From positions 124,001 to 188,000 of the forward strand of contig NW_026861690.1 in NCBI RefSeq assembly GCF_026571515.1: a stretch of DNA of 64,000 nucleotides, read 5' to 3'. Below, piece by piece: positions 27,740 through 57,800 of this stretch. The DNA comes from Ruditapes philippinarum. Taxonomy: Eukaryota. The position numbers and the translations under genes are program-made. How positions within the stretch are numbered: position 1 is the stretch's first letter; the number at the start of each line of letters is the position of its first letter. Under the pieces are notes generated by a model. It ran no database searches. It had not been told where the DNA came from and saw nothing but the letters and a program-made list of their open reading frames with translations.

Positions 27740-27899
27740 TGATGGTGGATTCCTTGCGCACAATGCCACCAAGGACACATATCCCGCACCAATTCCGACA
27801 AAGAAGGTCAACTTCACCGGGAACGGAGCAGCTATTACCGACGCCAATCATAACACTGGCAACAACATCTGTGATCTTCCAGCATATAATGACTGTATC
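27740..27899 (+). CDS. PTPN4: Internal linker exon (phase 2 to 0): [53 protein letters not shown]
   Basis: Acceptor tattttcag, donor ATC|gtaagt, 160-nt GC-richer open frame; the phase-0 end matches exon 51470. Confidence 0.75.
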
Positions 27900-30800: not shown

Positions 30801-33800
30801 CAAGGTGATTTGGGTGATTTGTAAGTTCACTGTGTTGGAATTTTTTATTTTGGAAGAATGCAGATATGAATAAAAACTGTGAAAAGATAATATGATTTTC
30901 GGATGATTACAGTGTTTCGACTGATGAGATGTTGACTTGAAAACTTGTCAAATGTAAGCATAGAATACAGTGAATGTGTCTTGTATTATGTGGTTATGTT
31001 ACATTAAAGGACTAAGTGGTTAAATTGAAGGAAAAGGGGAATAAGGGGTGGTATTAAGGTTTAAAAGATGCTACAAATTGGACTCAAAATGTAATTTAAA
31101 TGTTAGGAAACATATCTTTTAAAGTTTGCTGTATTATAACATGGCACTGTTTCAGTATTATTTTTTAGCAAACATGCGCAAGGGTTACAAATATACTGAT
31201 GAAACTGCTTGGTCTTAATGTGTCAAAATAGCAACCCACCCAGTGCTTCTGTAATTCACAGACACTCCTGTACTGGTATCATTAATCTCAGTATGTGCTT
31301 TATATCATGGATTCTTCTGTCCAATTCTGATGCCTCCAATGCTTACACAGAATGTTTTACATTTGAGATTATTCTATAAAAAAGCAATGAAATTGATTTT
31401 TCCATTTAACTTTTTGCCTGCTGCCGACAAAAAAAAGCCAGTTGCAGACCAAGATTTTCAGGCACATCTGTGTTGTTTGATTATCAATCTGCACTGTCTG
31501 CTAGTAATTAGTAATTATCTTGAAATTTTCTCTAAAAGTGATAAATGGTTTTGCTGAGATTAGGATTTACATTGTACTTAGATGAGTAAAGATCCTTGTT
31601 GTAAAGTTAAATATCATTCAAATGCACAAGTCCATCTTGAAATCTGGTCATAACTTTTCAGTATTTTTAAGGAGCATTTCAAATTATGTACATTACAGTG
31701 CAGAGATAAAATCATATGGCACTGATATCTACTGACTGATTGTGGTCTGCACTTGTCACAGGGGTACAGTTTGTTGCCACCAGAAGGCTAAGAGTAAAGA
31801 AGATATTAATTATTTAAGAGAATTACGTTAAAAAATGTGACAACAATTTTAAAGGCTTAACTGTGGATACTTTTCATTATCTCAGTTGAAGACTGTTGTA
31901 TTTTGCATTTAAGCAAAGAGATAAGATAAGTACAAAACAAGATACATTTTTATAGATCAGATTTTCTCACCTGTAGTAGTTACAAACTGTGTAGGAGTGG
32001 CAATTAACATCATTGCCAAACTGCCAGGCTCCTACTGTCTTACAGAATTGATCAGGTAAAATACTGAGTTGCTTATCATATTTGATATTTCTACACGATT
32101 GTGAAAAGGATAGGGAATCTTGAGAATTATATGCATTCTATGAGATCTTGGATGCTTAAAATTTTTAAACAAGATAGATAGTTTAATTTCCAGCCCATAA
32201 CAAACATAAAATAAAGTATACACAGATCTTCAACAATTCTTTAAAAAAAAAAAAAAATTAATGTTAGTTTAAATAGGAGATAAATGAAACAAAGTATTGA
32301 CCTTTATTCAAATTCCTTTCTCTGAATCAAATAGCATTGCTAATTTTTAGTATGGATTTTTAAATAAGAACAATTTCCTAATAGTAATATCAATTAAGTC
32401 TTAAGTATTAGCAAGATATTGTGACAGTTTTGTATATTTGGGAAATAGAATATAAAAACCTTAATATTTAGGGGTTTTGGTTGTCTTCATTTATATGAAT
32501 TAAAAGTGTATTGTACAGTTTTTGTGTAACACAAATTATATGGACATACCTACTGAGAGTACTCTAAGCTTACATATGTTAATGTCACTTAACTTCTTAA
32601 ATCATATAGAAATAGCACAACAATTAGCCAGTCAATCAAATGTGTTATGGAAACCAATGAGAACTAGGCTTTGAAGTAAAAGCAAGATGTCAAATGCAAT
32701 TGCAACCATTCCCAATTACTGTAGCTATGAAACATTCAAGACTGGCTTTTCTGAAGGTATAGGAGTATATAGTGAGACTACAACAGCACCTGAAAATGCC
32801 AAATATCCAAACAGAATCAGAGTGTTATACTGGGGAAAAGAGTGGAAAGTAAAAGCTACATTTCTCGTAGATGCAAATAATAATACGAAATGCGTGCCAA
32901 AAAATTTGAAATTGGCAAATAGTTGCGACTGGTTTGATGCATACAGTGTGCAGTATGATGACAAGGCGAAAGATCACATATCATCGTCAGGGGAGGATGT
33001 TGTTGAGGATCATTACCAGGACATTGAAGATGAATTAAACGAGAGAATCATATCTGTTGTGTCAAATTCAGATGATTCGGGATTATCTAGCAGTAGAAAT
33101 AGTACGGCAAAGTCTTGGAGACGGAGGATTGAACGCGAGACTGAAAGCTTTCGATATTCGGCAGAGAAAGGTTGCATTGAGTGGCTTGAGACTGGCAGTA
33201 TTGGACTAAAGAAAACAAACTCAGATCAGGACCTTATTAGGTCATTTGAAGAACAATTCAAACGGAGGAAGTTTGGCGTAAAACTTTCTGATAAGATAAA
33301 ATCTGAAAACGTGACCGTAAATGAAAGTGGAATGTTTCCGGTGTGCCAAACTCATTTACATAGAAAGTTTGGTACGGATAACAGTTTATGTGAGGATGTT
33401 CAGACATTTAATGCAGGGGAGAGTACTCTAGAAGAAGAAGTGTTTGAAGAGGATTTGTACTATCTTGGACCACCAAAGGTATGTTAATTATCTCCCCTTG
33501 TATTTTACTGAAAGGAGAAATTCAATCAAAACTTCAATCAAATCTTATACTTGTTTAAACAAGCAATAGTTTCCTATCTTCAATAGATAAATTTTATTTT
33601 CAGAATATTTCTCACCCTATGTGTTTTTGATTATAAAATCAATTGCATTCAATTTAATACAGGAGTATAATCCTATAGCAATGAAAATTCTCAAGTTTAA
33701 AATTCCATAGTGATTCTTGCTTAGCATTTTTTGCTATCAGCGGTTTATAATCAAGGTAACAATCATTGTTTGAAGTGGACAGGTTTTTGTTAATCTACCC

Positions 33801-36800
33801 ACTGTACACCTCACCTGACCTAGATTATCTCTTGTGTGTAACCCAGTTACCTTAATTGCCTGTAATATTATCATAGGACCATTGTAAAAACAGCAGAAAT
33901 GACAGCATCTACCATCATAATTTAGACATGTACTGCCTTGATGTGAGACTCCAGTATACACACACATTGCAATACTGCACTTTACCTGCAGAAGGGTATG
34001 TACATGATAAATTACAACCCCCACATGACAGTTTTCCCAGGCTTTCAAACTTGGTTTTTGGAATGTTGTACAAGATTGGGTATCATTTTGACAAGATTTG
34101 GAACTTACAGATAAAATTATGTTGCCATTATTATTTATCATATTATGATTATCAACAAGAATAATATCATAAAAATGTGGGATATCTGCAGCAATGAAAC
34201 TGGTTATAAGGTTTGGATAGGGATACTTGGTACTGGAATATGAGCAAGCGAGAATTCGTTGGTATCACTTTAATACAATATCAGTTCATTGGTACTGGTA
34301 TAGTATCATTTCATTGGTACTGTGGTACAATATCATATCATTTTGTTGGTACTGATACAGAATTGTACCATTTCGTTGACTGTGGTACAATATCATATCA
34401 TTTTGTTGGTACTGATACAGATTTGTACCATTTCGTTGACTGTGGTACAATATCATATCATTTTGTTGGTACTGATACAGATTTGTATCATTTTGTTGGT
34501 ACTGTGGTACAATATCATATCATTTTGTTGGTACTGGTACAAGAATCGTACCATTTCGTCATTAACAGTATCCAATAGAGACAAACAGATTCCCTAAAGA
34601 ACGCTCAAAACGACAGAATTAAAAATTGTTGCAGGCTTGGTTTGATTAAGCCTTAGCTGATGATTTTTAAGCCCTCTCACAGATGAGTGTTACAAGACTC
34701 TGTAACTGATTGCTGGTCTTTGATATAAAATTACCCAAAAATAAACAAAATCTAAATAAAGACATACAATGAACAGTTTCAAATCAAAGAAGGATAATGC
34801 CATGTCTATGATAACATTTAGTTTAGCATTTTTAAAATAAAGGGAAAAAGGAACATGATGTTTAAAATAAGGAGGGCTATGTGTACATGTGAAATCATAT
34901 CTACGGGTGGCCATGATCATTACCCCTTCTTACAGTGCTAGTTTGATGTACTTTAGTTTCTAATGATCGAAGCAAATGTATGTTGAAGAAATTTGGTAGA
35001 TTATAACATTAAGTTTACTTTGTTGTTTAAAAAATATTCAACTGTTTCTTTCATTAAAGAACATCAGTTCTGTTGAGACTTTGTGACATACACAGTAAGC
35101 GGTGTTCACAGTAACAGCGTTCACAGAAATAGGGTTCATATTAAGGGTGTTTACAGAAATGGTGTTCACAGTAATGGTGTTCACATTAAAGGTGTTCACA
35201 GTAACAGTGTTCACAGTAATGGTGTTTACATTAAAGGTGTTTACAGAAATGGTGTTCACAGTAATGGTGTTCACATTAAAGGTGTTCACAGTAACAGTGT
35301 TCACAGTAATGGTGTTTACATTAAAGGTGTTCACAGTAACAGTGTTCACAGTAATGGTGTTCACATTAAAGGTGTTCACAGTAATGGTGTTCACAGTAAT
35401 GGTGTTCACATTAAAGGTGTTCACAGTAATGGTGTTCACAGTAATGGTGTTCACATTAAAGGTGTTCACAGTAACAGTGTTCACAGTAATGGTGTTCACA
35501 TTAAAGGTGTTCACAGTAATGGTGTTCACAGTAATGGTGTTCACATTAAAGGTGTTCACAGTAATGGTGTTCACAGTAATGGTGTTCACATTAAAGGTGT
35601 TCACAGTAATGGTGTTCACATTAAAGGTGTTCACATTAAAGGTGTTCACAGTAATGGTGTTCACAGTAATGGTGTTCACATTAAAGGTGTTCACAGTAAC
35701 AGTGTTCACAGTAATGGTGTTCACATTAAAGGTGTTCAAAGTAATGGTGTTCACAGTTACAGTGTTGACCGAATTTAAGGCACCCCACGATATATTATCT
35801 TGATATATTATGTTGTAATGCTGTTTTTTAGCAAGTATACTCTACTGTCAGTCTAGCTTTCATTGAAATATTCTTGGAAAATACACACATAGCTTGAATA
35901 GTTTGGCATTCAGTTTTCTTAATTAATAGTGTAGTATTTGAAGAGAGAATTGCTGATGGTGTATATATAAGATATTGGCCACACACCAACCATAACAGAT
36001 CTCAATCTAGAAATTTGATTAGTATATTCTAATTGCTTTGCTTTTGTGTATTTAGTAAGTGATTCATGGCTAAAAGTAGCAATACTTGAGTACAATATAG
36101 GTTTATTGCACTAGTAGTGTTCAGAAAATAATGTTACTTATATTGGAACACTTCATGCGTGAGTTGCCCATATGGATTTCCATGCCAAACTTATCACACA
36201 CTGTGAGTAGAATGAATCTTAAAAGTAGAAAAATTATGTAATGAACACTTTATTTACAAGGACAGTTTTTGAAATGATTTTATGTAACTAATCTGTAAGG
36301 TTTCGGACTTGGAATCATCACTTGCACCTTTACCAATCTGGGTTTGAATCCAGCCATTGGCTTGAGATTAATACTTTTATCAGAAGGTATATCCATGCAG
36401 TCAATTTACAGATAGTCTCTGACACTAACAAAGTTCCTACTTCTTCTTATTAAATGGTTAAGTCTTGAGGGTCATCTGAGGTGACTTCTCCCAGCTTGAA
36501 AGCTGTAAACTTATAAGCCATACAACTCTAATATTTTCTGTATAGCTTGAACCTTAAATCTTCTGGCAGCAACAGAATCTACCCATGTGACCAGTGCAGA
36601 CTAAGATGATGATGGCAGCAGCAGAAACATCTGTGCTTTCTGATCGTGATCTGCAGTGTCCATTTTGAAACTTTTAATAAAAATAATGAATGGTTTTGTT
36701 GTGATTGACAGGTGAACATGTTCATTTTATATATTTAGAGGGTTTTTTTAGAGTCAAACCTTCTTCCCTCCCTGGCTTAAGAAAAGGTGGAAAGATGCTC

Positions 36801-39800
36801 GTGTTTCAAAAAGATTTTATTCTACATCCAACGCCCTGATTGACAAAAAAGAAATTATCATATTAAAAGTTGCTTGAATATTTTAAGATTTTAACTATTT
36901 TCATAATTATAGTAATAGACAGAAATTTGTCAAGTTTAAAAATAGCCCAAGGATATGCCTCAGCATTTCTGTTATATATACATATTATACAATCAGATAA
37001 AAATTTAGCTCGCTTTTTTGATGTACCAAACTTTAACAATGATAATGGATTGTGCTTTATTAGAATTTTAATGTCGGATGAACATGAATTGATTTTAGTT
37101 ATTTTATCAATTTTAATCATTTTGAATTTCATGTAATTTGAATTTATGATAGTGCTTAGATAAAGCTTTTATATAATAGAACTATTCTCTGTGGTGTATG
37201 ATTGCGATTATTAGAAAAGAACTGCTTTGAAATTAGTAGGCATTTAAATGGATAGATAAGAAATGGCTTTTAATTTTAGATAATGTGAGCTGTCAATTAT
37301 TTACTACACAGTACTGAGAGGTCTTTTCTCTCTTGTTATTGATAAATATTTCATAAAAAAAAAAAAAGAGAAGATTTTTATCTATAGATTACCTTAATAT
37401 GTACCAGAGAAACTATTTTTATACTCCCTACCTAGTAAGGTTAGAATTTTACTGAAACTATTCATCGAATGATTTATCGAAAACCTTATGTACACGTACA
37501 GTGCAAACAGTTTATAAAAGTTTCTATAGGCTGTACTTGAAAAGAAATATTTTTCAATGATTTATTTTTTCTGTCATAATCTGTAAGATAAAAGCCGTTT
37601 TAATCTTAGACCTGATAAATTTTAAGGCTTCGCACTATGTGTCATTATTTTAAACTTTGTACAAGTCGCCCATAAAATGTGCATTTTTCAAAGACATAAA
37701 ATGCATATTTGAACTTAAAGGCCCTTCACCACATTCCTTTCGCTTGATAATTTGGTGTAACATTTGATTTGATTGGGTAACAGTGACATAATTTCCTGTA
37801 AGAGACAGTTTGATTGGCTGACAAGTGACCTTACGTTTGAGTGTATTGTAGTGAATTCAAGTGTGTCTACATACTGAAAAATAGAAGAGTAAAATTTATC
37901 ATAACCGCTACACTTGAGTTATGTTGATAGATGAAATCCTGTTTTAAGATTTTTCGATAGTCGCTTTTTTAGGTATAGGGGATTAAAACTGCCGACTGTC
38001 TGTATGTTAAAAGCGTCATTAAGAAATGTAAACAGTTGGAATTAAAAACGGGCTTTATAAAAATGTTGTGAAAAGTTTAAAAAAAGAAGTATACAAAGCA
38101 ATTCTTGTGTTTATTCTATGGATTTATTGAAAAATTATGATGACAGAATAGTGTTATTACGAGGGAATAGTTTGTTAACGGTTATTGGTGAAATGATGAT
38201 TTATGTACTTTGAATGTATGGATTTATTATTCTATTGAATATATCAATGAAATGTTCGTCATAAACTTGCATCATGTGGTTTTGAAGAAATAGAACTTTT
38301 TTATAGGGATATTATTTAAGGATATAAAATAAGCACTGTCTGTATACAAGAAAAGAATAATATGTTGTTTATCATTGGGGTTTGAACCATCATTAAATAA
38401 GAGATGATTTGTTTCAAAGATTACATGAAGACGTAAAAGAAATAACTGGCTTAAAAGTTGGTCATGAAATTTTCTCCTTTACGTACCGAATTTATACAAA
38501 TTGTTTTTGTACCGAATTTGTGCAAACATTTCAAGTGTACAATATAACTGCACTTTTTTGTTTGCTTCGCTGCATTTTAAACACATTTCAAGGTGTTGAG
38601 TGTCATAAGATAGCAACGTTTAAATAAATTAAGAAATAGTTACGTCAGTTGGGGCTGTATTTGCATGCTTGTGGTATAAAGTTTTAATGGGAAATTTATT
38701 TCAAAAGTGAATAATAAATTTTAAATTATGCCAGTTTCAAACATAACTTGAATAATGTAAATTGTCATCTTGGCTCAAGACTAATGTAAATGCAAAATGA
38801 ATAAAGGAACAGGTGCGATAGTGTGGCGCTGAGGCGACGGATATTTATATATATAAGATATACATGTATAAATATGTGCGATGCTTCATAATCTTTAAAT
38901 GACAGATGCATGTGGCCTTGTCTAGATTTTAGGTATTCATAACCTTGAGTCAGTTAAATTATATTTTTCATGTAAAAATGAAGAAAAAATATACATGCCA
39001 TCAAAATTTTAATCAATTCTGTTTTGAAATATGATATTTTGTGATGGTAATTTCTTGATTTCAGTGAATATGATATGGAATTTTTGAAAGATATAATTTA
39101 TATATCTTATTAAATCAAAGATTGGGAAAGAAAAATACAATATTTTCAATAATCGGTCAATTTTCTTGTTCAATATGAGAAAATTATATAAAATCATGAT
39201 AATTTCCCGATTAATTTGCCGGTTTTGTTTTAGTTGTGGCTTTTTTTGCTCTTAAATATTGAGCTGTCTTGACCTTTAACATTTGAAATTTTAAAGTGTT
39301 TAGATATCCCCTGTGGTTAATGATGACCAGATTATTATGTACTCCATATGTCACAAAGAAATTTTTACGATCAAATTTTGAAAGTTTCCGAAGCTTCACA
39401 TTTTTATTACAAGTTTATACATTAAGTCCTGAATGTTTGGTCACTCAAATAGTAATTAATTAACCCTTAACATGCTAAATATCTTAAATGGACTTGTCTG
39501 TCTTTTAATCTGGAAAAAATCATTCATCACAATAGGGAAAAATTTCAAAATAACTAAGGAATGAACAGTGAAGATCATGAACAGAAATCATGGATGGCTT
39601 TTAACTAAATTTTAATTCTAAGCTACTTGCTATGTTTCAATGATTTGTATACAATAATGACTTATATCCTGTATTCTCCCGACTTTCTTCAATGGACCAG
39701 TCCAGTTTCCACTTTAAGAACTGCCCATTTAATATCAATATTTTGGGATAACAAGACAATAAAATTAAATTAAAAGGTCTGCAAACCATATATGTGCCTA

Positions 39801-42800
39801 GATAGGCTGACCTGGCCTTACACTCATGGCAAAGACTTTCAAGCAGGGGAAGGGTTGAAAATGACTTTACAAGTTATAGGTGAGGGCTGGTTGCTTTAAA
39901 TTTGGGTACCGCTTTGGATATTTATAGTGATATGTTTCAGAATGATACAAATTTTCATTTGAAAACAATGATGAGGCCAAGTCACTTTAAGCTTGATATA
40001 AGCATGTATGATGTATAGGTTTTGTCCACATAGTTGACATATTTAAGGTGTTTGTTTACATTCCCATGATCAATAGACACCACTATATATTACACAGTAA
40101 AATAAGCTTCAGGTTTCATTCCAAACATTAACAAACAAACTATGTTTAGTTTCCTTATTGTGTATATCAAAATATTTAATAAATGTCAATAAAGAAATAG
40201 GTGAGCGGGGGAGGTAGAGTAGAGGGTGGGCACATTCTGGACTGTAATTAAGGCTTAATTGTTAGAGGTTGGATACTTACCTTTTGTTATATAGATCATG
40301 CTCAAGATTTGTTTTCTATATAATTGATAATTCATTTCTTCTGTATTTTCATAATATTGACTCTTAAATTACAAGTTGTAAGTATAAACAAACTTGACTC
40401 CACCACAGTGATTAAGTGGAGAAGTTAATAATGACATGTGGAGGAAAATGTCAGATGGGATACAGAAACTTGTTTATTTGATTAATGATTATGAGTAACC
40501 TTAGAAAACTTGTACAAAGATAAGTTTTGTTGAAATTATGATAAAGACTTAAGATATTCAGTCACTTTAATCTATAAAAAATCACTATTTATAATCAGCC
40601 TTAAGTCAACAGTAATACTGGGAATAATCAGACTGTACTCACAAATATGTAAGGAGAGGTAGTGATCCCAAATTCCTTTTCCTAAAATGATGTGACTTTT
40701 TTATTTTTTCTGTACTAGATTAACCTGTTTTAATAAAATAAACGGGATCATCTCACCCACAAAGATAGATATGAAAAGTATAATGATGTATGAAATATGC
40801 ACATTCCTAGGGTGTGTAATTAATGGGGGAAATCTCAGCCGCTTTGGTTGAAGTTGAGAATATTATAAAACATACTTCAAGACCAAGTGAATATTGTCAC
40901 TTGTTTTTCTGGTGACTTTTTTTTCTGACTTATTCAAAGGTAATTTCTGATGCTAAAGGAGCTGATTTCATACATGTATAATATGTGTAAAATATAAACA
41001 CATTGAAAATAAACTGAAAATAAAATTGACATTTTATTGCTTAAAAAATTAAGAAATTTACAGACCTTTCATTACGGGGAGAGTTTTGTTTTGGTTGGCC
41101 TTAAATTTGAGACAGATATAGTTGTATTTGTTGATTAATGAATGTAAAAGTTTCATACTGTAATTTATAATGGATATGTTTTATCATTTTATACTATAAA
41201 AATACTGGCAAGTGAAGGGGGAAAAAAGAAATATGTAGGGAGGTGATAAACAAGTGTGGAATTTCACTTCTACTTGATAAAAACTGACATAGTTTACAGT
41301 AGAGGGACACTGTTCAAGAAAAAAAAAATAGTTTGAAACTAGGAACATATGATATGGCTATCTTGAAATGTGTTTAAATGTGGCTGTTTGGTAAATATTA
41401 AGTGAGCAAATTTGGAAAAGAAAACATTTATCACAAAATTTGGATTTTATTTTAATATTATTATTTATTTATTTATTTATTTTTTTTTAGTGAATGTTAA
41501 CAAAATGTAAGGATTAGTAATTTCTGAGTAAAGGAGATTATTTGTTGATTTTATGAATGTGTGTTTAATAACGGATAAAAAACAAAATTATATATATTTT
41601 TGTATTACCAACCATGAGCCAACAGCTTAATGTATTAAATGAAAAATAATACAGAATTAGGGCAGTTTTGAATTTAATTTTTTAAGAAGCATGTTAAATT
41701 GAAGTTTTTATTGGGTTGGAATGTCAAATATAAAGTGTCAGACCAGCAAAAAATTATTCCAGGCTTAAATTTAAATGTCAAATGTATTCTTTGCCTCATT
41801 TTTGTAAATATTTTATTCATCATATGGGCTGGAAATATTCTTCTTTTTTTATCTTTTAGAAAATTAACAGTGCAGCTGTTACCAGTGACTAACCTTAGTG
41901 TTAAAATGAGCCGTGTCACGACAAAACCAACATAATGGGGTTGCGACTAGCATGGATCCAGACCAGCCTGCGCATCCGCGCAGTCTGATCAGGATCCATA
42001 TTGTTCGCTAACAAACCCTATAACAAGTAGAGAACAGCATGGATCCTGGTTAGTCCAACTAATTGTACTGCGCGACGAGATATTGTGCTATTTTCGTGTT
42101 TTGGCAATATCTCGCCTCTACGAGATTCTGTCCCAGAACGAAAATATCTCAGAATCAAGCTCTGGCACGTCAATATATTTTGACTAGGATCCTGATCAGA
42201 TTGCGCGGATGTGCAGGCTGGTCTGGATCCATGCTGGTCGCAAACCCATTATGTTGGTTTTATCATGACATGGCTCAAATATTCTTTTCATGTTGCCATG
42301 AACAATTAATTGGATTATAGAAAGCAGGTTTTAGGGTCAATTCATTAACTTTGTATTAAGTGGAATTTTTTCTTGGCTTTTAAAGTTCATCAGATAAATC
42401 ATATTTATTTTTTTTAAATTTCAAACTTAAACATTTTGGAAGTCAAAATTGGGTATTTAGTAATTTCTTTCCATTTTCAAACCACTTAGTGTCTTTAAAC
42501 AAAATCAACAGATTTTTAAAAAGAAACGTTGTGTTTGAAATTATGGCTTATACTGTAATTGATGTTCAAATATCTTGACCATTAGTGCATTCACCTGAGT
42601 TTAAACATAAGTGCGGTCAATTATTAAAACATACTTTTATCAAACTATGCTCTCTTTAATAGACATCAGATTCTGAAAAAATAAAATCAAGAGTATAAGT
42701 AAATAACTATTGAAATTGAAGTATTTATTCGAAATTTTCTGTTGTCATCATATTAGAATAACCGTTACTTAAACAGGTGTGATTTTGTAAATACTAGAAA

Positions 42801-45800
42801 AAGAAACCCACTCAACATTTTTGCAAACACAAAAACATTGAAAGAATATTTTAACAGCCCATATGTTAGAGTAAATATTTACTCCTGAAAACCTTTCTCA
42901 TTCAGATTTGCTAGACTAAATATTAAGTGAATACCAAGAAAAAAAGGAACGAACAAAAGTTTTTATTAGACCAAATACAGCAGGTATAAAGGACACAATA
43001 TGAAGGACTTTGAAAAATTCCCAGCCAAACTGACAGGTGTTGGATAAAAAGAATGGTGTTCATGGCACAGAGGGAACAAAATGCTGAAAATAATGGCAAA
43101 AATCTGTCTCAAATTGAAGGGGAACAAGTTGACCTTGAGGATATATCAAATGATGTGTTTGACATTGAATCTAATAAAAAGAAATCGAGATATTCCTTTC
43201 CACTTGCCAATAAAATGATGACGATGGAAGGTGATTTTGACGATAGCTTTCAAAGGCCAAGGTCATTCTCCGATGCTTCCATAAGTAGTGGAAGGCATGG
43301 TGTTAAAGTGCTGAATGATATGTTCCATGCTGATGGAAGAACATCTATGAAAGTATTTGTGAGAAGGGAGAGCCATGTGATTTCAAGGGACAAAGAGCTA
43401 ACCAAATCTGCTGTGGCAGAAGATGCCCTTGCAAGAAGACATGACCTTATGTTTGAATCAAAAACTAAAGAAAGGGTATTAAGTTTAGACGATATAAGAA
43501 ATAAAAGTGTAGTAAACGAAGGTGCCCCACCTAAACCAAAGTTGCCATCAAATTACAGAAAGTATTTAAATGAACAGTTAAGGATTTATTATGAAACAAA
43601 TGATAAACGTAGAAACGCTGGCCAGAATTTACAACCTGAATCTGGTGCTAAAACTAACTACACGCAAGGTGCTGATAAATTGGATAAGAGTAGAAATGAT
43701 AATCAAAATGAACAGTCTAAACTTAAAGCTTCCAATTTTGGGACTGAAAAAAGACCACTTGCTGGAAATCTTAAAAGAGGAAGATCATCAGTGTCTGACT
43801 TTGCATCAAGGCCGGTCATTTACAGACATTTTGATCCTGAGTTGCAATCTCAACTATTAAAAAAAGAGCTAGACACATTGAGAATCTCAAGAAATGTTAG
43901 AAAGAAATCAGAGACCATGAAACAGTGGATCGAAAGTGGTTCAAGACCTAAGTCCACTGGTGACCTGCATGTAAGATTTTCAGACGAAATAACTGTGAAA
44001 GAACTTAAAGACTTAGATAAAGACATACAAAAGTATGGGATGAATAAAACACTGCTAAAGCAGTCTAAATCTGTAGATATTCCACAAAAAGTAGATATTT
44101 CACAGAAAGATCACAGAAGCATAGACAATAATGGACAAAGAAAAACTTCCTCAGCATTCCCACCCAGTGGAGCTGCAGGAAGTAGAATGCAAACTCATAA
44201 ACGGGAAACTGTTGATGATAAAAGAGTAGACAATGAAGCAAAGACTTTTCGATCTAGGGAACAGGCTCTCAAACGAGGACAAGCACCTATCAGATCAAAG
44301 TCTGCAACAGCACTGGGAAGAAGCAGGGATGTTTCCAGACAAACAGGAGAACCAACACCATTGGGAGAAAATAAAAATTCTCAACTTTCTAAATCTACAT
44401 CGAACTTGAGAAGGAAACAAAACATTATTACAAAATTCAACTACTCTTCCGTGGAACAAAAGCGAGAAAATGTAAGAGCCAGGTATCAACAAAGTGATAA
44501 ACAAAACAGACTAGATTCATTTTCTCCTGGATTAGATGAAGCAGGTAAAAGGGAATCAGGTGATTTTAAAACAGGTGGTTTACAAAAATTTGATCTCAGA
44601 GATGGTGCTAATACATCTGATCTCAAAGATATGAGAACAATTGGTGATAACAGATCGGATGAAGAAAAATATGCTGCTTTATCAAGAAGTAAAATAGTTC
44701 ATTCAAAGTCTTCATCTTTAGACTCACAGCTTGACCAAAATTCTGGAAGAGTAAGGACCGAATCTGCCGAGTTTAGATACAACAACAACAATCGGCCTAA
44801 GTATGACTCTGTTAATAAACTTGGACCAAATCATATAGCTGATAGAATGAAATTGACATTCAATTTGGATAGAATTGCTCAAAGGTCCAGTAAAACTGTT
44901 GCTCAAAATGTAAATGTACCAAAGTACAAAGACAAGAAAACTATTAGAGAGGAATCTGATCCCTCCTATAGTGATAGTGAATACATAGTGAACAAAGGTG
45001 CTAAAAATGCTCACAATGTGCCAAATTTAGGGTCCAATTCTTCTCAACAAGGGAAGATTGTGTTAAGACAATGTAGGATAGGAGCGGATGTTGTTTTTGG
45101 GCTAGTTGCTGTCCAAGGCGGCACTTCCCAAACAACAGTAGCAGCAGCAACAACATCAACAATTAAACATAAGGTGAGAATAAAAAAAATATGAGAATTG
45201 TTTTAAAAAAGATTAAAATTCTTCTCTCTAATATGAGATTTTAGAAAATTCCATGTTTAATATCTGATTAAATGTATTTGTTCAATAATGTACAGAGGGA
45301 CACCTGAGGTCTTCCTCAGCCAGTAAAGCTGGAAAGCCCCCATAATTTTATGACCTATAATCAGTTTGTGCCTTGTTTAAACCCATTTTTTACCCAATGT
45401 ACAGGATAAGGTATTTTTTAAGGAATTTCTTATTAACCTAATGTGTTAACTTGAAATGGAAATAGTTAGTTAATTTGGTCTGTTAAAAGTATTATGCTTG
45501 TGCGATACCTTTATTTGCCCTATTCTTGATTAATATTCACATTTTGTCTGGCAGCAGCTGTCGCTTAATACGACCGTAACCTTTTGGACTGCTTCTGTTA
45601 AATGACCATCCATATTTGGACTATAAAAAATCTGCAGCTGCTAAATTAATTGTTTGGTTAAAAGGACGTGATGTTACACATCTGACTAGAGATTTATACA
45701 ATTCTTTTTGCACCTAAACATTGTATCCAATGTATGATCATGCATGCATTATACCTTTTAATTTTTCTTTTTCCTTCTACACACTTCAGTCTAAACTTAA

Positions 45801-48800
45801 AAAAAAAAACTAAGGGGAATTTACTGTTTCAAATCATGCATTTCATATTGAAAAAAAAAGGAAAGGAAAAAAATGCGGTATTTGGATTTTGAGGAATTTG
45901 AATTAATGTCTTGAAAAGATAAATTTTCCATGGGGGTTTAGATAGGTGGAGATGAGTCATCTGATAAAATACATTACACCAGGGGAGAGTGAAAATCTGT
46001 CATCTAACTATTGTATGGTTTATGATGCATATTAGAAAAAGGAAGGCTGATAACACTGGTTTAACTGTGTAATATTGTCAAATCTTGGCTGGTCTTTTGA
46101 AATATATTTTTATATATACATAAAAGGATATTAGATATCAAATGCTAAACATAATTGCAGTGTATTGCATCTGTATTTTTTTTTCTGGCTAAAATCAAGG
46201 AGAATCACTTTCTTAATAATGATTGAAATTATGTTTATTTAAAGTATAAACTATGTAAAACTTAGTATGTTTCATAAACTAATGTACACATAATTATGTG
46301 CATAATACTGAAAGTCTTAATATCTTGAAGTTGTTATGAGTATTCCTAATGTATAGCAGCCAAATAAATTTCTCATTATTTATGTAACAGCTAAGTATTT
46401 TAAGTTTGTTAGTTTTTGTATAACAGCCAAAAAAAGCTTATATAATGTTATAAGTTATAATATGAACTATTTATTGTAATAGTAAGATAAATAGTGTATA
46501 ACAGCTCTACATCACATGAACTACATGTATGTATATAATGGTAAGACTGGATGTATAACAGCAACTGCACATGAACTATTTTTGTAATGGTAAGACTGAT
46601 AGTGAATAACAGCAACTGCACATGAACTATTTTTGTAATGGTAAGACTGATAGTGAATAACAGCAACTGCACATGAACTATTTTTGTAATGGTAAGACTG
46701 ATAGTGAATAACAGCAACTGCACATAAACTTGTTATGTTATAGTAAGATTTAAGTGTACAACAGCAACTGAACATGAACTATTTTTGTAATGATAAAGAC
46801 TGATAGTGTATAATAGCCACATATCACATGAACTATTTATGTAATGGTAAAAATCATGTGTACTATTTAAGACAGGTAATAAATTTCTCATGAACTATAT
46901 GAAAAGTAGGTAGTTCTTTTTATTATAATGTTTATTTTATTACATCATGTATGATGTCAACTACATTGTTCTGCTGTATGAACAATTATAATATTATAAA
47001 ATTTTAAAGTGTTCACTTACACCTGAATGTGGTGAATATAACTTTAGAAAATGTGAAGTTGTCAAGGGGAAAGAATTTTAAATGCTATTTAAACCTGTAT
47101 TTTGATTGCTGGGTTGACATTTGAGGAATTTGTCATCATCATAAAAGTACAGTGAAAGTAATTCAAACAAAACTTAAAAACGATTTAAAAAGCTCTAAAA
47201 CTGGTAATTTCATGCTTACCTTACCTTTGGAGTGATGAGGTGTTTGTAAAACGATCATTGCTGTTAAATTTCTTCTTCTCTTCTGTAAATATTCTGTAAC
47301 TTGCTTTCCCTTTAATATTGCTGAATCTGAATAATGGACTTGTCCAGCTGCTGTTTTATGGACAAGCTATTATAGGTTGAAGGGATTGCAACATCAAAAT
47401 CTTAAATCTTCACAGATTGACCAAAAATGTGAAGTCTGATGACCGAGACTACAAAATTTGATTGCGCTCGATCTGCAGAGGTGAATTAACTGTATTTGGG
47501 CATTTTAAAGATTTGATGCATTTGGGACATTTTAATGTTCACCTATATTTATAGTTTAATTTATGTCCCGCTGAAGTCCCTCTTGCGATAAACTATTTTC
47601 TTAATATTTTTCAATCAATCACATATTTTTTTTTCCACATTGTTCAAACAAAATGTTAACACTGTTGGAAATGATAAAGATATTGTTTTTTTTACACAAG
47701 CAAACATTGACAACCTTTTCCGAACTTTGGAATGTTTCCATGTATAAATTCTCTTTACATGATACAAAAAAAAAATAATTTCACATTCTTTAGGATTACC
47801 TGAACTGTGTCTACTTTTTAAAATCATTTTAACCCTTAGCAATCTTGACCCTAGCCACTGGTATGGAGCCAGCCTGTACCTCTGTCTATACTGATGACGG
47901 CGCAAATTCAAACTTGCATCCTGATATTCCCAAAACAGATAATGGACAGTTCCAAAATAGAAAATAGAATAGTCCATTAAAATAACAGGTTTATAGGTTA
48001 ATTTATCATGACCCAAATGAAGGGAGGGTGTTTGGTCTTTGAAACCTCAGAATTTTAGGTTTGGATGGTTATAGCACTAGCATCACTTTACCTTTCATAT
48101 TTCTAATTTTAGACAGTGTGTCAAATGCCTTAAGCAAATACAATGTATTTATCGATTTACTGGTTGGTTTTATCAAGGTAAGAATGCCAGGAGCTGCCCA
48201 ACTCCTTTCATAGCTTTATTGCTTTTTGTTGGGGTTTAAATGGGCACCAGCAAGTAAAAGCTAATCATATGGGGGAGAAAGAACCTCTCTACCCTTTTTG
48301 GTGGCATAAAAATATTTCAGGCACAATGGCATTGAGTAGAACCAAATAGATAGTTCTGTATTAAGGGCTTAGCTGGATTCCCTAATGGCTTCCTCACAAT
48401 GGACTTACTTAATATGTTTCCTCAGAGGCTAGACAGTGTTGCTATAACCTTCAACCCATTCACAGGGTTTTATATACCAACAATATCTATTTTTGAAGGA
48501 GACACTGTGTTAATTGATAGTAAATTAGTGTTTAATGGCTTGTCACAAGATAATTATGAAGTATTATATTCCCAAGTTTGAAGCAAACTGTCTGCTTGAT
48601 GACACATGTAATTATAAGGTAGAAAAAAAACTTTATGTGTAATTTAATTTGATTTTACCAAAACTAAAAAAAATGTTTATATATGAATTTACTCCTTGCT
48701 AAAAGGAGATATTTACTTTGGTGGTTTAAGGTGTTTCATTCAGTCTGGTTCAATACTGCATTATGTGCAATAAGGACACAGATTTAATATGCTACCAGCA

Positions 48801-51800
48801 TAGATTAAATTGAAGCCCTCAGCAGCCCTAGGTATGACTCAGGCCTCAGTCAATATTGTTTGCATAGGTAAAGCATTTTTGCCATTGGTGCCAAATTTTT
48901 GAAAAGAAAGTCGAAAACGCTTTTATCAAAAAAAATAAATATTCGAGAAGTAAACATGTAAAGAAAATTGTTACATATATATGTAATGTATATGTCATAC
49001 ATGTACTGCAAGAGTTAATAGATTCATTTTGATTTAGTATCTGTTCTTGACAGCATAGCTTAAGCTTCATGGACTGTGTATGACAGATTGAGTTTTTTTA
49101 TTCCACATCTTGTGTTACATAAAATGCTACAACAGTTTAATTACAGTTGTGTTCAATACTTCAGTATCATGTATTTAAAGCCTGTCTAACCTATAGAATA
49201 ACTTAATACTGTTAAATGAATGTGACATTTAAAAATTATGGTGTGGGAAGTTGTAAAATACTGAATATTTTAACGATAAGTCACCAGTGAATATTAAAAA
49301 AACTTTTGATAAAAGAAAATTTATTGGTAACACACCATTTTATTGTAAATCCTGCAGATTTGTGCAACCTTTCATTGCATATAATGGGCTAAAATATCCT
49401 TAAAGCAATACGTATTCCTGATAATAGAAAACATATTTTGATGAATATAGAAATGTAAAACATAGAAAATTCTAGGGATTTCTATAAATGCATATGCTGT
49501 TTTTTGCAGTCGAGGTCCAAAAGGCTGTATTAAGTATGGGTAAGAGTTCGTATTAAGACGACCGTAGGGAGTCTTATCGAACTCTTACCTATATAACTGC
49601 AAATCGGCTCTTACAACTCGATATTCAGATAAAAAATAGAAAGTGTCACCTCTTTAATTAAGCAAAAACATTGTTTTTCCCAGCGAGTCACGTACAACAT
49701 GTTTCCTAGTCTACAGGTGGATGGCTGTCAAATTACCTAACTGCTGCAATGTAATTCAAAGTAATTATTTTTATTCACATCTTCATAATTATCTTTGATT
49801 ATTAATGCAGTTCATTCCTATTATATGAAACTTACTTTTTCTAGAAATATTAAAACAGTTCATAAACATTTTATAAGGATATCAAAATGTTACTATGTAA
49901 TCATTTGTCACTTACCAATCCACGTTATTATCTATGTAATAAATTTGAATATATACTCAAATTGCATCAGTGTTATCAGCCTTTTTAGAAACACCTGACC
50001 TGGCTAATTAAAATATGCCAATCACAATTATCACTATCAGCACTGGTCTCTTAATGAAAAAGTGGCTACACTAATTATTGTCGAGTAAGAGCCTATTTGC
50101 AGTTATAAAATCTTAAATCCCAGAGCTTTATTGTTTTCACTATAGATAAGAAGTTAATCACTAGAGAATGACACTCCACGAGATTGATATAGCATTAGTT
50201 CACACGGAAATAGTGGATATCTAAATTGTTTGAAGTTTTTTCTCCATGAATAAAAGTGTGGGAAAGTTCTGTTGTATTTTCTGAGAGCATGTGTCTGTGG
50301 AATTCGCTTAGTAGCAGTATTTTGATGTATTAATCATTGAGGACAATCTGTCAGTTGCCCTAGAAATATTGTTGTATATTTAGTTATTATATTCTGCTGT
50401 AGTGCAATATAGGATAATATAGCCTGAATGAAATGAATACTTGAGGGTGGATATTTGATATTAGTGTTATATAGATCTTGGAATTTATTGAAATACAAGG
50501 CTTGTTTTATCAATTTGTTATTACATGTAATATTGAACACATAAAAAACATATCTAGAATGATACATAATATTATGTGGTACTTCACTTTCAAAAAATGT
50601 CTAAAAAAGCTCAAATTAACAATCAAAATGAAAATTTTTTGAAAAGAAATACAATAAAATGTACTAATTCATGTTAGCAAATAACAAATAAATGTTAAGT
50701 TGAAAATGTAGAATTTTGCATTTTACAAAAAAATCAATATTTGGCTTGTTATTTGAAGTAATGAGTACTGAGATATTACATATTGACTGATTATAATTGA
50801 CACATTATCTTGAATGATCTATACCAACACATTATCTTGGATGATCTATACTGTCACATTATCTTAAATGATCTATACTTTTTGCTCCTGAGGAATTGTT
50901 TTCCAGGTAATAGAGGATTTATTTCTGTCTTTTCTGCATTGTCAATATAACTGGGGTTGGGGGTGGGGGGAATGTAATATAGCTTTGAAATTCATATTTG
51001 TATTATAAGGGGCCAGTCAATGTGGTGATGATGTACTGAATTCTTTTATGAAATAATGGAGAGTGTCCTAAGTTATTGAAGTTTATCTGTAATGTATTCA
51101 GTAGAAGAAGTTTGTTCTGAAGAAGTACACTTATAGATTAGCTTATATGTTAGGTAGAATAATCTACTGTTATGTAGAATAAAGTTATAATTTAGAAGTA
51201 GAATAATTATATACATGTACTGATAAATGCTTTGGCTTTGATCAGAAGAAAGGTGAATTTTGATTCAAAATGTAAGCTTGTGCAAAAAAGGTATTATTGA
51301 GTGAGACTGGAGTTGATTTCTGTCCCATAATTTATGTTGTGTTACAAAAAACAGAAATGAAAAAATCGCCACTGCAGCAGGAATATGATAATAATGATTT
51401 TATTTTTCACATGTAATGGTTATGTGTTAATATAAAGTATATTGAGTTTATTTGTTTGTTTATTTTCAGCCTAATGGCAATGGTTACCTTGATGGACAGG
51501 GTCTGGTTACCAATCCGGATGATCCCCGGATGATCCCAGGTGGCCCAGATTGCTTCCAATGTCAGGTGACGTATCCTCATTAACCCCAACCCAATCTTTA
51601 ATATACCTTCTTTTTTTTTTTTTTTTTTTTTTTTGTTTATGTTTCTTCATATCTATGTCTATTCTTCACAATTCTTGTTATTAGCCTCTTTATTTACCCT
51701 ATAAATTATTTTACTATTTTCCAGCTACGCTTAAGTCATCCGTTCTTAGAACGTCTCTTATTTAATTCTTTATTTTATTTTTATTTTATCTCCTCGCACT

Positions 51801-54800
51801 TCCACCATAGCGGACGCAAAGAACTCTCTCCTCGTATTTGCCTTTTTTGTTTATTATTTATATTTTATCTACAAATCTGAACTCGACTCGCTTCTGTGAA
51901 TTATCTTCATTATTTTTTCCAGCCTTAAAGCATGCATCCTTTTATTTTTCTCATCTTTTAACAACTTTAATCTATTCTCTTAGTATCTTCCTAATTTTAA
52001 TGATCTTTTTTTCTTTAGCTTTCTTCTTTAATTGTATCTATTTTTATTCTTTTTTCTTTTTTCTTAAGTCAGGCTTATTTTTTTCCTATTTTTACTATAT
52101 GTAGAATAGTTTGCATGGTTTCAAAGTGGTTTCGAGTCCTACCAGGGATTTCATGTTCTTTTACATAAAGAGCAGTGATACCAGTTGTTTTCATATTGGT
52201 CTTTGGTTCTACTCTGGTGCCCATGTAATCAGGTTTATCAAGATAAACATGCATTCAGGTGTAATTGAAAGATGTTGTTGGTGCTTCTGTGGTTGAGTGG
52301 TTACCCCTGTTGACTTCAAACCACTTGCCCCTTAACCGCTGTAGGTTAGAATTCTCTCAGGGGCTTTGGATTCTTTCATGTGATGAAACTATCCAGCTGG
52401 CTTACATAACATCGGTGGTTCTTAACTTAGGTGCCCGCATGTGCCTTAAATTATGTATGGAGGGGCACCTGAGGCCATCCTCCACCAGTAAAAGTAAATA
52501 TGACCTTTACTGTGTTGGTGCAAAACCCAACAAAAAAGGAAAAAAAGAAGAGATGATGTCACCTTTATGTAAATGATAATTGTTGTCATGTTTCAAGGTA
52601 GGTTACTAAGCTTCATTCTGAACATTTTACTCTTTTGAACATTATACTTGAGTCTTCATGGCTGAAATCTTTTTATATCTAAATATTGGGAAAAAAGTTG
52701 GGCTAGGCTCAACTTATTCCTATTATGGCAATTCTTGGATAAGGTTTTGCAAAATGCAGTTTCATATCTACTTAACCACTTACGTTTTTTTCTTGGAACA
52801 TCACTAATTTTCTTTTTCAAAACGCAATTGATGGTCAGTATTCAAGAACCATAACTCTTAATCTGGAGATGTAGTTGAATTATTGTCTTTTTGAATAATA
52901 TAGAAAACAATTCAGCTCAACTCTTATTTAACCATCTATAATGCTGTGAATTGTTAGGAGGCTGTCTTGTCAGAAAGCTTTTGTTCATAAAATGATATTG
53001 CAGATGCTTTATGTAAAGTTACATGATATTTTTATATATACACATTTCATATTCTTGTCTGTCTGTAAATGTTTTTGTCTGCACAAAATGTGTAATTAAT
53101 TTTTGTTCACTTGTCAACTTGAAAGGAATTGGTGAAAGAAAGTTACAAAGACTTGATAAGCAATAGATATGGATGATTTTTATATATGATGATTTCAGGG
53201 AGGGGCAGATCAGGGTATGCCTATAATAGTATCACGGGTGGCTCCCAACACTCCAGCGGATAATGCTATACCTCGCCTTAATGAGGGGGACCAGGTGCTT
53301 TTTATAAATGGTCGAGACGTCTCCCAACATACACATGAACAGGTATGTCAGAAATTATTTAACTTATTTGCCTGAATAATTTTAATTTGTCTGTTATGAC
53401 ATCTGATGATCATGATGGTATTGATGATTGATGTTGATGACTGATAATGATGATGATGATGTTGATGATGATGATGATACATTTGGTTTGTTTTATGAGT
53501 CTAACTTTCTCAGGAAATGCTTCCTGAATTGAGGTTATCCAAAACTCATAAAAAAAGAGAAGAAAAAGAAAACTTATCAAATATTGGTTTTTTCCCATCT
53601 TTTTTGTGGGGTACACATTTTTACGGTTACAGCTTCACGATGCCCAGTTGTTGGATGATGAATGTGTTGCTCTTAATTTTGTTCAATAATTTTATCATGT
53701 TGTAACTGTAAAAGTTTGTTTTTACCCCCAGATAAGCTGGGGAAAAACACAAATATTTTTAATTCAGAAGTACTGAATTTCATCCCTGTCTTATTAAATT
53801 CACAAAATTTTATCTTCAATGAAATTATCCAATATTCTCAAGTATACCAAGATAAAACTTATGCATATCTTTTATATATACTACTATAAATATAACTGAA
53901 TAAGTGAAATACCAAAAAAAACCACCCCATTTTTGTGGCCTCCAAGGCAGTGGCAAGTGACGCACCAAGTTTAGGTCACTAGTGTTAATTCTTAAAATAA
54001 AATATAAGTTCTGGACAGCTAGACAGTTAGTAGTTGTACTCGGTTTTCTGTCAGCGTCTAAACATACACAAATATAAGCAATCTGACCTCTTCCTTCACC
54101 ATTGAAAACTAGAAACTGATCATGTGACCTTTTTAAGTTGTCATGTGACTTTGACAGTGATGATGTCATTTAAAAGTAAACAAAAATCTTAAAAAAAATA
54201 TATAAAAGAACAAAATATTACTTACTATTATTTTTCATTTTCTCCATAATTTATTATTATCTAATGTAAGATGAAAATGAATTCTTTTAAAATATGCTGT
54301 TTTAATATGAAATATATATATATTTGTTTCTTTCTCAATAATTTATAATATAATATATGCTGATTTTATCTGAAATTGGTTATTCTTAGGGTTTTTTTTT
54401 GCTTTTTTTTTTTTGACAAATGTTGATAACAATTTAAGAAAATATACCTCCCTTTGCACAGGTTGTCATGTTTATACGTGCCTCTCGTGAAACGCATTCC
54501 GGAGAACTAGTTTTAAAAGTTCGACCGAATGGTAAGTGTGCATGCTGTAAAGTTACTTTCATTTGCTTTTTTTTTCTTTGGTTTTCATTATCGTCTTTTG
54601 TGCCGTTTTTCCTAGGTTGTGCTATTTATAAGACAATCGAGGGAGTCTCGTACGAAGGATCTTAATTTGATAGTTAGACCGAATGGTATGTATTAAAAAT
54701 GTGTTACAAGGAATGGGGTGTTCTTTTTTTTGTTTTTTTTTTATATACTGCATAATAACATCAGGTAATAGTGGTCCATTATTGTATAATATGTGTGATC

Positions 54801-57800
54801 CTAATATATGAATGTTTAAATATTAACATCCCTTATATAGATAGAAGTTATAACACTATTAATATACCTGTATTGTCATATTTTTAATCATGAAAATTTT
54901 TTTTGTGATTTTATTTCTCTATTCTAGGAACTTCTCATAATAGTAAAAAAAAAATAATAATATTAAACAGGCCCAAATGGATAGCAATTTTAGACTGAAA
55001 CTTTGTGTCAGCTCGAAAGTTTAGAATCTTGCAGTGAAATTAGGTCAAGAGTGGGCTGATGGTCAATGCATGAAGACTTAGAATCCGGCATTAAAATTAG
55101 GTCAAGAGTGGGCGCATAGTCATGTTTTTCAAATCTAGTCATTGGATTGAATCCATATATAGTACCAAGGATTTCTCACACACACAAACAAATTCAATGA
55201 CACTTGTCAATTCCAATCCATCAGAAAAGCGTAGACTTGTTTTAGGTTTCTAACTTTTATCCTTGCAGTTGAGCTAAAATGACATACATGTATATTGCTA
55301 TGCTTAGGTAAATTTCAAATTTGAGTTGCTGTCTTAGTTTGATATATTAGACAATAAAATTGAAGTAACCTCAATTTTGGTCTCAGAAAATTCAGAATTT
55401 ACCAAAACCATAATGCAGGATGTTAGGAATCTAATTTTAACATTCTGCTATTCACCTGCTATCAAGTTTATCAGAATTTGAATTCAGTGAAAAATTTTTA
55501 TAAAATTTTGTGATTTCTAGGAATAAGTATATTGAAAGGATAATTACATAAAAAAACTATTTAACAGAATTAGAATCCAAAAATAGAAAATTTAATGGTA
55601 TCTTGTTAATGCATATCAATTTTTCTTCCTTAGTTTTGTTTTCTTTGTTTACTTATTTCATTTGTGTGTACCATCAAATCTAACATGTTTTTTCGTAAGA
55701 CTATATAATATTGCATGTTATATGACACTTAATTATTTTTTGACAAGATGAATTGCATCGTGGTGTATTCATTTTTCAGATGGTTTTTATGGTTTTATAT
55801 TCTGTATTTTATGTTATCAAAAATTACATCTGTACATTGATGCAAGGATTGCCGGTTTCAAAAGAAATAAAAAATTGTTGGTATAAAGTTTCACAAGGGA
55901 AAACTTTAAAATGAGAGCATAATTTTCCTTATGTAATATAAAGTTATAAATATTTTTATGAGAGGGTTGTATTTAAAAAATTGTTGGTTTTGAAGTCTCA
56001 TGATCTGGGACAGGGGGGTGGGGTCTATGGGCTGGCTCTTATCTGAGATATTTAACATAGGGCCTGCTGGGGCTTCTAAGGTCTTGTGCTCGCTGATGCC
56101 TTAAATATTAGATATAGGGGCACCTGGTTTCTTGGGCATGCTCATGTATAAATATAATACAATACAGGGCACCTTGGGGCCTTTGCTATATCATGCCTGA
56201 AATACTTTAAATAGGGGCACCTGGAGTCTATCGGCTGGCTCATGCCTGAAATAGAAAGCATAGGGGACCTGACATCTTGGGCTGGTGTGTACCTCTTATA
56301 TTAAATGGAGAGAAAACAGGGCTTCTTCACCAGTAAAGCCAGATTGGCACCATATGACTTAAGCTGTAAGACTGAAGTTCTTGTGCAGTAGTGAAATGAA
56401 CCAGAAATCTTAAGATTGACTGAATCAGAATGTTAATCCTTAATTAACTCATTTAGTTTGTGGTGTTTAAGATTTTTGAGGTTGGAATCGTAGAAATTTT
56501 GTATTTCACTTTATTGTGGTTTGCAAAGAACTATCCTTTATAACTTTATGGAATTTATTTTAGAACTATCCTTTTGGTGATTCGTATAATAAAAAAACAG
56601 CTCATACATTTAGACAGTGCAGGTATTTAATTACCTGTCTGGTATGTACATACCTTGACTAGCTTTTACAAGATGTGGTATCTTGTTCTATATAGCAGCT
56701 GAGATAATACATTTTTGAAATGAACTTTCAATGAATGGGGGTTAGTTTACAATTTGTCCTTCAAGGATGAAATAATGAATGCATAATATTTTTTTTTATG
56801 TCTGTATCTAGTTACTGGTCATGTACAGCTTATTATTATACATATGTTGCAAATTATCTACCTTTATATTGCAAAAAAATTTAGGGAAAATATTATCATT
56901 TCTTCATTTCTAAATGAAAAAGGAAGAAATTGTTTATGTTTACCTGTTTATTTTTTAGCTTTCCTTTTTTTTCAACTATAGCTAAGTTTGTACAATAATT
57001 ATAATTTATGAATACTTCAGAAAAACAAAAATTGGTGTACCAGATTAAAAAATCTATTCAATTTTATAATAATTTCCTTAATGCATATTTCATTGTATCA
57101 TAGTTTGTAAGTTATAAAATTATTTAGTATATAGATGGTCATATCATATAGGATGGTGTTAAAGATGATGTTAAGATTAAAAAATTACATTTATTTTCAT
57201 GCTTTTGTCAGTATTTGTAGTGTTTTATTCCCTCTCAATTGTCTGCCTCCTATAGCAAACTTTAAATGTTTCAACTTTTGATATGGAAAAAGTTTACCAG
57301 TCATAATTTCATGTTTTACTTTTCGTTTATTTACAGCATATTCAGGTGACAATAATTCAGACAGCTGACGGTTCTGACGGTTCTGATTTATTTTTTGTTT
57401 ATTTTACAACATATTCAGGTGACACTAATTCAGACGGTTCTGATTTATATTTTTTGTTTATTTACAGCGTATTCAGGTGACGATAATTCAGACGAGCCTG
57501 ATTTTGTGTATGATCCTGAAACTCATCAAATATCAAGTGCTACAACAGGAGCCAATGCTTTAGATCTGTCCCTTAAATTATTAGAAGAAAGTTTAGAGAG
57601 TGGTGCGGCACTTGCTCAATTTGAAGTAAGTCTTATTGTAGTTCACCCAGAAGTGATAATGGGGGCAACCTTGGTGGAGTGGTTAAGGTCATCGACTTCA
57701 AACCACTTGCCCCTCACTGTTATATGTTCAAATCCCAACAGATACTTTGGATTCTTTCATTTGAGGATGCTAGCTTACCAAATGTTGGTGGTTCTGCTCA

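Follow-up and report, generated by a model that had tools for sequence, protein, structure and literature searches.

Does a giant open reading frame lying within an intron of a Ruditapes philippinarum tyrosine phosphatase gene belong to the message of that gene, and if so, what could its product do there? The window, a stretch of 64,000 nucleotides of genomic DNA analysed here as a whole, carries on its forward strand a frame of 713 open codons at 43053–45194, in which a phase-0 donor (AAG|gtgaga, at 45173), placed six codons ahead of the stop, follows the 707th codon. The original prediction took these 707 codons for an alternative N-terminal exon replacing the FERM domain of a PDZ-containing phosphatase (PTP), and on rereading, its account of the frame, the upstream in-frame stop (43011–43013) and the donor was correct. 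Counted from stop to stop, the frame (43014–45194) extends over 726 codons, whereas shuffling never produced a stop-free run longer than 137 codons (window, 30 shuffles) or 184 codons (ORF alone, 300 shuffles). The ORF is also richer in G+C (37%) than the window (32%).

Splicing and transcription of the giant exon

Twenty public runs from 12 studies, none recorded as RNA, contain at least half of the sampled words, and we compared contigs of seven different runs with the window, in two sets of four runs. In the first set (downstream; best 15 of 97 joints listed), a GT..AG joint from 45173 to 51470 was present in all four runs, each from a different study; its short side measured 32 letters in three runs and 29 in one, and the junction thus exists as originally proposed. 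In the same four runs, the PDZ and PTP exons are likewise connected by GT..AG joints, up to 62266. As genomic DNA would not give GT..AG joints, we regard these contigs as transcript-type. In the second set (upstream; best 15 of 63 joints listed), a GT..AG joint connects 38215 to 42906 in three of four runs, with a short side of 255 letters in X9 and 30 in both X5 and X6, and a single X9 contig comprises 37926–38215 followed by 42906–43699. A contig of X17 crosses 42906 unspliced. Contigs start at 42906 in three of the four runs that cover the giant exon together with downstream exons. The acceptors anticipated directly 5′ of 42906 and 51470 are thus both present in the DNA and both used.

No single contig from the seven runs spans the leader to the catalytic exons, and the isoform is therefore a chain of overlapping joints. 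Taken together, the two joints identify the 707 codons (43053–45173) as the first coding exon of an isoform, probably transcribed from an internal promoter, and we consider it very probable that this isoform is a spliced, PTPN3/PTPN4-type phosphatase in its architecture. As expected of an alternative first exon, it is spliced in frame (phase 0; 4/4 runs) to shared exons and has a 5′ leader of its own. The description as an N-terminal exon holds for the coding sequence, yet in the transcript it is the second exon, behind a non-coding leader. Its 5′ untranslated part (42906–43052) ends with a 15-codon upstream ORF (43000–43047, forward strand) that closes five letters ahead of the main ATG.

The leader exon occupies 37918–38215 on the forward strand, with an approximate 5′ end: contigs end at 37918 (X17) and 37926 (X9) without extra letters, and contigs cannot show a start. 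It has 11 upstream ATGs; together with the first 147 letters of the giant exon there are 12, all closed, against a chance expectation of 10.9, and thus no fewer than expected, a point against the proposed isoform. A likely internal promoter lies directly upstream (37500–37917, forward strand), where a CpG-rich stretch begins and two ATTGG (inverted CCAAT) boxes, of the kind bound by NF-Y, are found at 37772 and 37813; alone the pair means little, since the window has six such close pairs. The segment 37501–39300 has the highest CpG observed/expected ratio (0.82; median 0.40) of 208 segments of 1.8 kb, a size chosen post hoc. Invertebrate methylation is mostly found in gene bodies (excerpts of PMC3985014 and PMC4776710), and the CpG peak over the leader is as expected for an unmethylated promoter within a methylated gene body. 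We infer that transcription of the isoform likely starts at this promoter, near 37.9 kb. An additional leader at 29.4–30.0 kb, suggested by contig depth, was discarded: it matches an element with terminal inverted repeats, other copies of which probably explain the depth. This MITE-like element (29351–29981) measures 630 bp and has terminal inverted repeats of 28 nt.

The host gene and its presumed FERM-bearing form

The exons shared downstream of 51470 encode a single PDZ domain (by Pfam on the homolog P0003, which the window exons match at 75–98% identity) ahead of a classical PTP domain that has an intact WPD loop and HCSAGxGR active site and is closest to PTPN3/4. They match the Mercenaria protein at 75–100% identity, and in the PDB the Mercenaria homolog is matched best by human PTPN3 (E 5.5e-160) and PTPN4. 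The encoded protein is a putative tyrosine phosphatase. The original prediction had suggested looking for bivalve relatives fused to PDZ-PTP, and two are found in RefSeq, each as X1 and X2 models fused to PDZ and PTP without a FERM: LOC123530832 of Mercenaria mercenaria (1111 aa; 64% identity over the giant-exon product, hereafter the arm) and LOC128237607 of Mya arenaria (1119 aa; 35% identity over the arm).

The first shared exon, which begins the PDZ, is placed at 51470–51565, its end being the next GT in the window. All four runs leave the window sequence after 51512, and their contigs have 90 letters here, as does Mercenaria, versus 96 in the window. Across 51513–51600 the window contains a short duplication and differs from the four transcript runs and from Mercenaria. 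The departure after 51512 is probably an assembly error. The PDZ core exon (53199–53342; contig joints, 98% identity to residues 719–768 of P0003) is followed by two mutually exclusive exons of 70 nt each that encode the alpha2 helix and last strand of the PDZ domain. Exon A (54462–54531), the one closest to human PTPN3, is spliced in four of four runs and matches P0003 and P0019; exon B (54616–54685) is spliced in three of four and matches P0018 and P0011, and both variants are present in the Mercenaria and Mya models. In human PTPN3, the alpha2 helix starts at the ligand-binding histidine, H572 (excerpt of PMC10185773), and exons A and B may give the domain two ligand preferences. The PDZ–PTP linker and PTP catalytic exons follow at 57468–57625, 58703–58793, 59653–59720, 61609–61740, 62123–62266, ~62907–63053 and ~63509–63646 (tblastn, with joints as far as 62266), the last coding exon being placed past the window end. 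All of these exons are on the forward strand.

Members of the PTPN3/PTPN4 family carry a FERM domain. With the FERM_C-bearing Dreissena model P0017 as query, no FERM exon was detected in the 64-kb window. The last upstream coding exon of the long form (27740–27899, forward strand) encodes post-FERM linker, with 58% identity to residues 202–241 of P0017, and ends in a phase-0 donor; an X9 contig carries this exon with 980 letters before it and 30 after it that do not belong to the part of the window compared. Because only the linker exon matches P0017 and the X9 contig continues for these 980 letters ahead of it, the FERM form of the same gene would begin upstream of the window. The original prediction thus stands in describing a PDZ-PTP isoform devoid of FERM, there being no Pfam family in the arm and no FERM in the homologs P0003 and P0011, while the replacement itself is deduced from the resemblance of exon 27740–27899 to a FERM-bearing Dreissena model and from knowledge of the family.

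With a phase-0 donor at 27899 and an acceptor 147 letters (49 codons) ahead of the ATG, the giant exon might be suspected of being an internal cassette of the FERM-bearing transcript. In the frame of 27899, however, a stop occurs two codons past the acceptor, and the exon is therefore no cassette of the long form. Among the joints listed (best 15 of 63), only 38215 feeds 42906 and none comes from 27899, and the two clam proteins in RefSeq begin around the corresponding methionine. We consider a cassette extremely unlikely.

Conservation and anatomy of the arm

The giant exon is under purifying selection: of the 30 best-supported SNPs inside the ORF, 19 are silent and 11 alter a residue, with no stop gained (pN/pS 0.16, p 7e-7). 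A word search retrieved 15 arm homologs among 7,992 scored candidates, and a profile search added four to these, having returned 13 matches among 1.84 billion representatives. The named relatives are only clams, all Neoheterodontei (M. mercenaria, M. arenaria and a 97-residue fragment from Dreissena polymorpha), and the remaining homologs form three deep groups on a quick tree that carried long-branch warnings. The Dreissena fragment (P0037, DPMN_107927) matches arm positions 459–548 and lies on a chromosome-scale contig of 145 Mb, whereas the FERM model P0017 of this species lies on one of 76 Mb; it is possibly a detached copy.

The splice site is conserved along with the protein. In each of the 17 homologous ORFs that are unspliced, the footprint that a phase-0 donor leaves in the protein (K/E/Q-V-R/S/G/stop; a pattern written after looking and with a chance of ~5% per sequence) comes soon after a hairpin near the end of the arm (described below), and the donor is visible in the DNA at both homologous genomic loci. 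This bears on whether the ORF serves, additionally or even predominantly, as an independent nested gene that yields a 713-residue protein through read-through and intronic polyadenylation. A stop lies six codons beyond the donor, AATAAA/ATTAAA hexamers occur at 45179, 45212 and 45267, an X5 contig covers the intron at 45450–46202, and many homologs are recorded as stand-alone ORFs, all of which would suit such a gene. Against it, four of four runs splice at 45173, and the read-through tails vary in length and sequence while the donor footprint is kept in 17/17. Moreover, polyadenylation hexamers are common in A+T-rich DNA, and the stand-alone records appear to be gene calls on unspliced contigs, as was demonstrated for L001 and L002. 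A nested gene is thus very unlikely, and we continue with the ORF as the first coding exon of the phosphatase isoform.

In composition, the arm is biased toward S, K, R, D and N. It is not of low complexity, as had been thought, an entropy of 2.2 bits or less being reached in just 7 of 696 twelve-residue windows. Its supposed richness in motifs of basophilic kinases proved modest: RxxS/T occurs 16 times versus 9.8 in shuffles (p ~0.03; one of 11 patterns tried) and RxRxxS/T three times versus 0.85 (p ~0.06). The net charge is +37, and lies between +16 and +35 in 17/17 homologs. Disorder prediction, which had been recommended for this peptide, labelled most of the arm as disordered: by charge and hydropathy, 87% of its windows were so classified, compared to 1% for the PDZ and 31% for the PTP domain, although the measure is rough since a FERM_C control also scores 54%.

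Within this predicted disorder, 71 of the 707 columns are at least 90% identical among 19 sequences, 31 of them being S, T, R or K, and they are gathered in about 10 blocks. In the N-terminal half these include RPRSFSD (residues 68–74), KVxxRE (100–107), PPKPxLP (159–165) and a helix (262–294), and in the C-terminal half RSKS (414–421), a helix (464–484), the DNRSDEEK helix (532–545) and a beta-hairpin (668–687). With motif patterns written after viewing the alignment, RPRSFSD, KVxxRE(S/T), the KELxxLR helix, RSxS, DNRSDEEK and the RQC hairpin are found in 19/19 sequences, PPKPxLP and an SxSNL block in 18/19, KSSSxD in 17/19 and VRF in 13/19. The motifs singled out originally therefore differ in standing, RPRSFS and the RSKS block being kept in all 19 and RxKS in 12, whereas RVRTES is not conserved. 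AlphaFold places helices at 168–183, 262–294, 464–484 and 536–545 and a hairpin at 668–687, on conserved blocks, with pLDDT below 50 in 584 of 713 residues. When the whole Mercenaria isoform was modelled (22 aligned sequences), no confident fold emerged anywhere, including the PDZ and PTP; as the same method, given a shallow alignment, failed on folded domains, the picture of the arm is weak evidence. Searches of the arm returned no Pfam family and, in the Atlas, only scores below 0.8. A PP1-docking site at HVRF (306–309) was considered and rejected: HVRF is found in 12/19 sequences and RVRF in 1/19, with neither in the other six, among them one whole clade, and the docking consensus [RK]x0-1[VI]{P}[FW] (excerpt of PMC4794898) is matched in P0013 only.

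Possible functions of the arm and relation to known systems

Taken as a whole, the best explanation, and in our judgement a probable one, is that the arm replaces FERM as a targeting and switching module. The isoform protein would comprise ~1,130 residues, its basic arm, predicted to be disordered, taking the position of the FERM membrane anchor. We postulate that its invariant basophilic serines (in RPRSFS, RRES, RSKS and KSSS) could be phosphorylated by kinases of the Akt/PKA/AMPK families and then bind 14-3-3, that the short conserved helices, the proline motif and the terminal hairpin could fold on binding partners, and that the arm may in this way tether the FERM-freed phosphatase to a different cellular site. 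We read the arm as a phosphorylation-switched tether because its invariant serine motifs fit kinase and 14-3-3 patterns and because, in human PTPN3, FERM sets the location and its removal raises activity (excerpt of PMC10185773).

The two components of this explanation differ in strength. That the arm acts as an active motif scaffold we consider quite likely. Switching of the 14-3-3 type, predicted from motifs, we would place slightly below an even chance. According to excerpts of PMC2773716, whose motif definitions we used, RXRXXS and RXXS, in some cases with leucine at +4, are the site types usual for AGC and AMPK-family kinases as well as for 14-3-3, and the 14-3-3 binders already known include PTPH1. 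Conserved sites of this kind are present in the arm in 19/19 sequences (RPRSFSD and the RSxS block), and the invariant RPRSFS (S73) and RSKSATAL (S417) fit the patterns of both the kinases and 14-3-3. Speaking against the switch, enrichment of the basophilic motifs is only modest, and those that are conserved have no proline at +2, which is canonical, though not essential, for 14-3-3; the one RxxSxP of the arm, at 632, is outside the conserved blocks.

The isoform could also be real and the arm mainly an inert spacer, the purpose being the loss of FERM, by which the PDZ-PTP would be freed or activated. About 90% of the columns do vary, arm length ranges from ~600 to 890 residues, FERM loss alone suffices to raise the activity of the human enzyme, and this same role has been proposed for FERM-truncated human PTPN3 isoforms. 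However, 700 residues are unneeded just to drop FERM, the pN/pS ratio given above is low for a spacer, and 19/19 sequences, otherwise down to ~28% identical, keep the hairpin and blocks such as one of 15 residues [15 protein letters not shown]. We therefore hold an inert spacer to be unlikely.

Another alternative is that the arm acts inward, with the invariant tyrosine helix (EEKYAAL) or the hairpin inhibiting the PTP or PDZ of the same protein until phosphorylation releases it. The hairpin lies ~5 to 25 residues from the donor in 17/17 ORFs, and therefore always near the PDZ; the EEKYAAL tyrosine is kept in 18/19 sequences, and the PDZ and linker already regulate PTPN3/4 activity (excerpts of PMC10185773 and PMC6016963). 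On the other hand, homolog P0036 has phenylalanine at the tyrosine position and no structural result supports a contact. A predicted hairpin–PDZ complex scored 0.27 and 0.02, below the mark of 0.34, which speaks neither for nor against one. Inward action appears improbable to us, and we retain the arm as an outward-acting targeting and switching module.

The clam isoform resembles PTPN3 (PTPH1), PTPN4 (PTP-MEG1) and Drosophila Ptpmeg in placing one PDZ ahead of a classical PTP domain. It differs from the canonical FERM-PDZ-PTP arrangement in that ~700 unrelated residues stand instead of FERM and that a choice between two mutually exclusive exons supplies the end of the PDZ; where the clam has its arm, human PTPN3 has FERM and a linker of ~200 residues (excerpt of PMC10185773). 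Of the three human PTPN3 isoforms described in that excerpt, two have a truncated FERM, their location and role being given there as unknown. They are alike in releasing the PDZ-PTP from FERM-based location, but lose sequence, whereas the clam isoform gains a conserved arm from an exon and leader of its own. The RefSeq models of Mercenaria and Mya share the arm-PDZ-PTP architecture with both PDZ exon variants, although they are automated and named 'uncharacterized protein'. The open-access literature (supplement isoform tables and subscription papers being outside the scope) yielded no paper on the arm, the clam models or the PDZ exon pair. What is known is thus the family, the FERM-truncated human isoforms and the unnamed fused RefSeq proteins of two clams; the replacement arm appears to be new. 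A conserved arm in the place of FERM offers a natural experiment in the retargeting of an enzyme by a new exon, its few invariant blocks can be tested one at a time, and the PDZ exon pair adds a second switch beside the ligand groove. Gene callers log the exon as a stand-alone orphan or an 'uncharacterized protein', which masks its membership in PTPN3/4.

Variable first exons spliced to constant exons are familiar from plectin, the clustered protocadherins and UGT1A. The clam gene would be alike in having tandem alternative first coding exons with phase-matched donors and one shared acceptor. A second intronic exon at 32610–33478 on the forward strand is a candidate alternative first coding exon (ATG at 32687, 264 codons, phase-0 donor). 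It differs in that its intronic start exons are paralogs neither of each other (best blastp E 0.18) nor of FERM. An X5 contig at 32610–33478 begins directly after an AG and continues for 27 letters beyond the donor. Over its full length, the 264-codon exon is 45% identical to part of the Dreissena protein P0017, a model that puts the counterpart inside a FERM-bearing protein, and four of six listed SNPs in it are silent; the Atlas gave no usable match for the 264 residues. The exon is transcribed, and its last part is acidic and includes two tyrosines.

More tentatively, the gene may be read as a combinatorial phosphatase, in which a single catalytic domain would be combined with two PDZ grooves and at least three unrelated N-termini (FERM, the 264-residue arm and the 707-residue arm). 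The longer arm would then be an intron-born bivalve invention, and its DNRSDEEK helix and RQC hairpin, binding modules outside any known family, would have taken over targeting from FERM. We regard this joint reading as possible rather than probable.

Rfam gave no matches in the window. A long tandem array of short units at 35090–35770 contains ORFs of more than 230 codons on both strands, with no gene evidence seen. Tandem and interspersed repeats are found in the large upstream introns, at 1750–2830, 22180–22550, 22600–23750 and 34280–34530.
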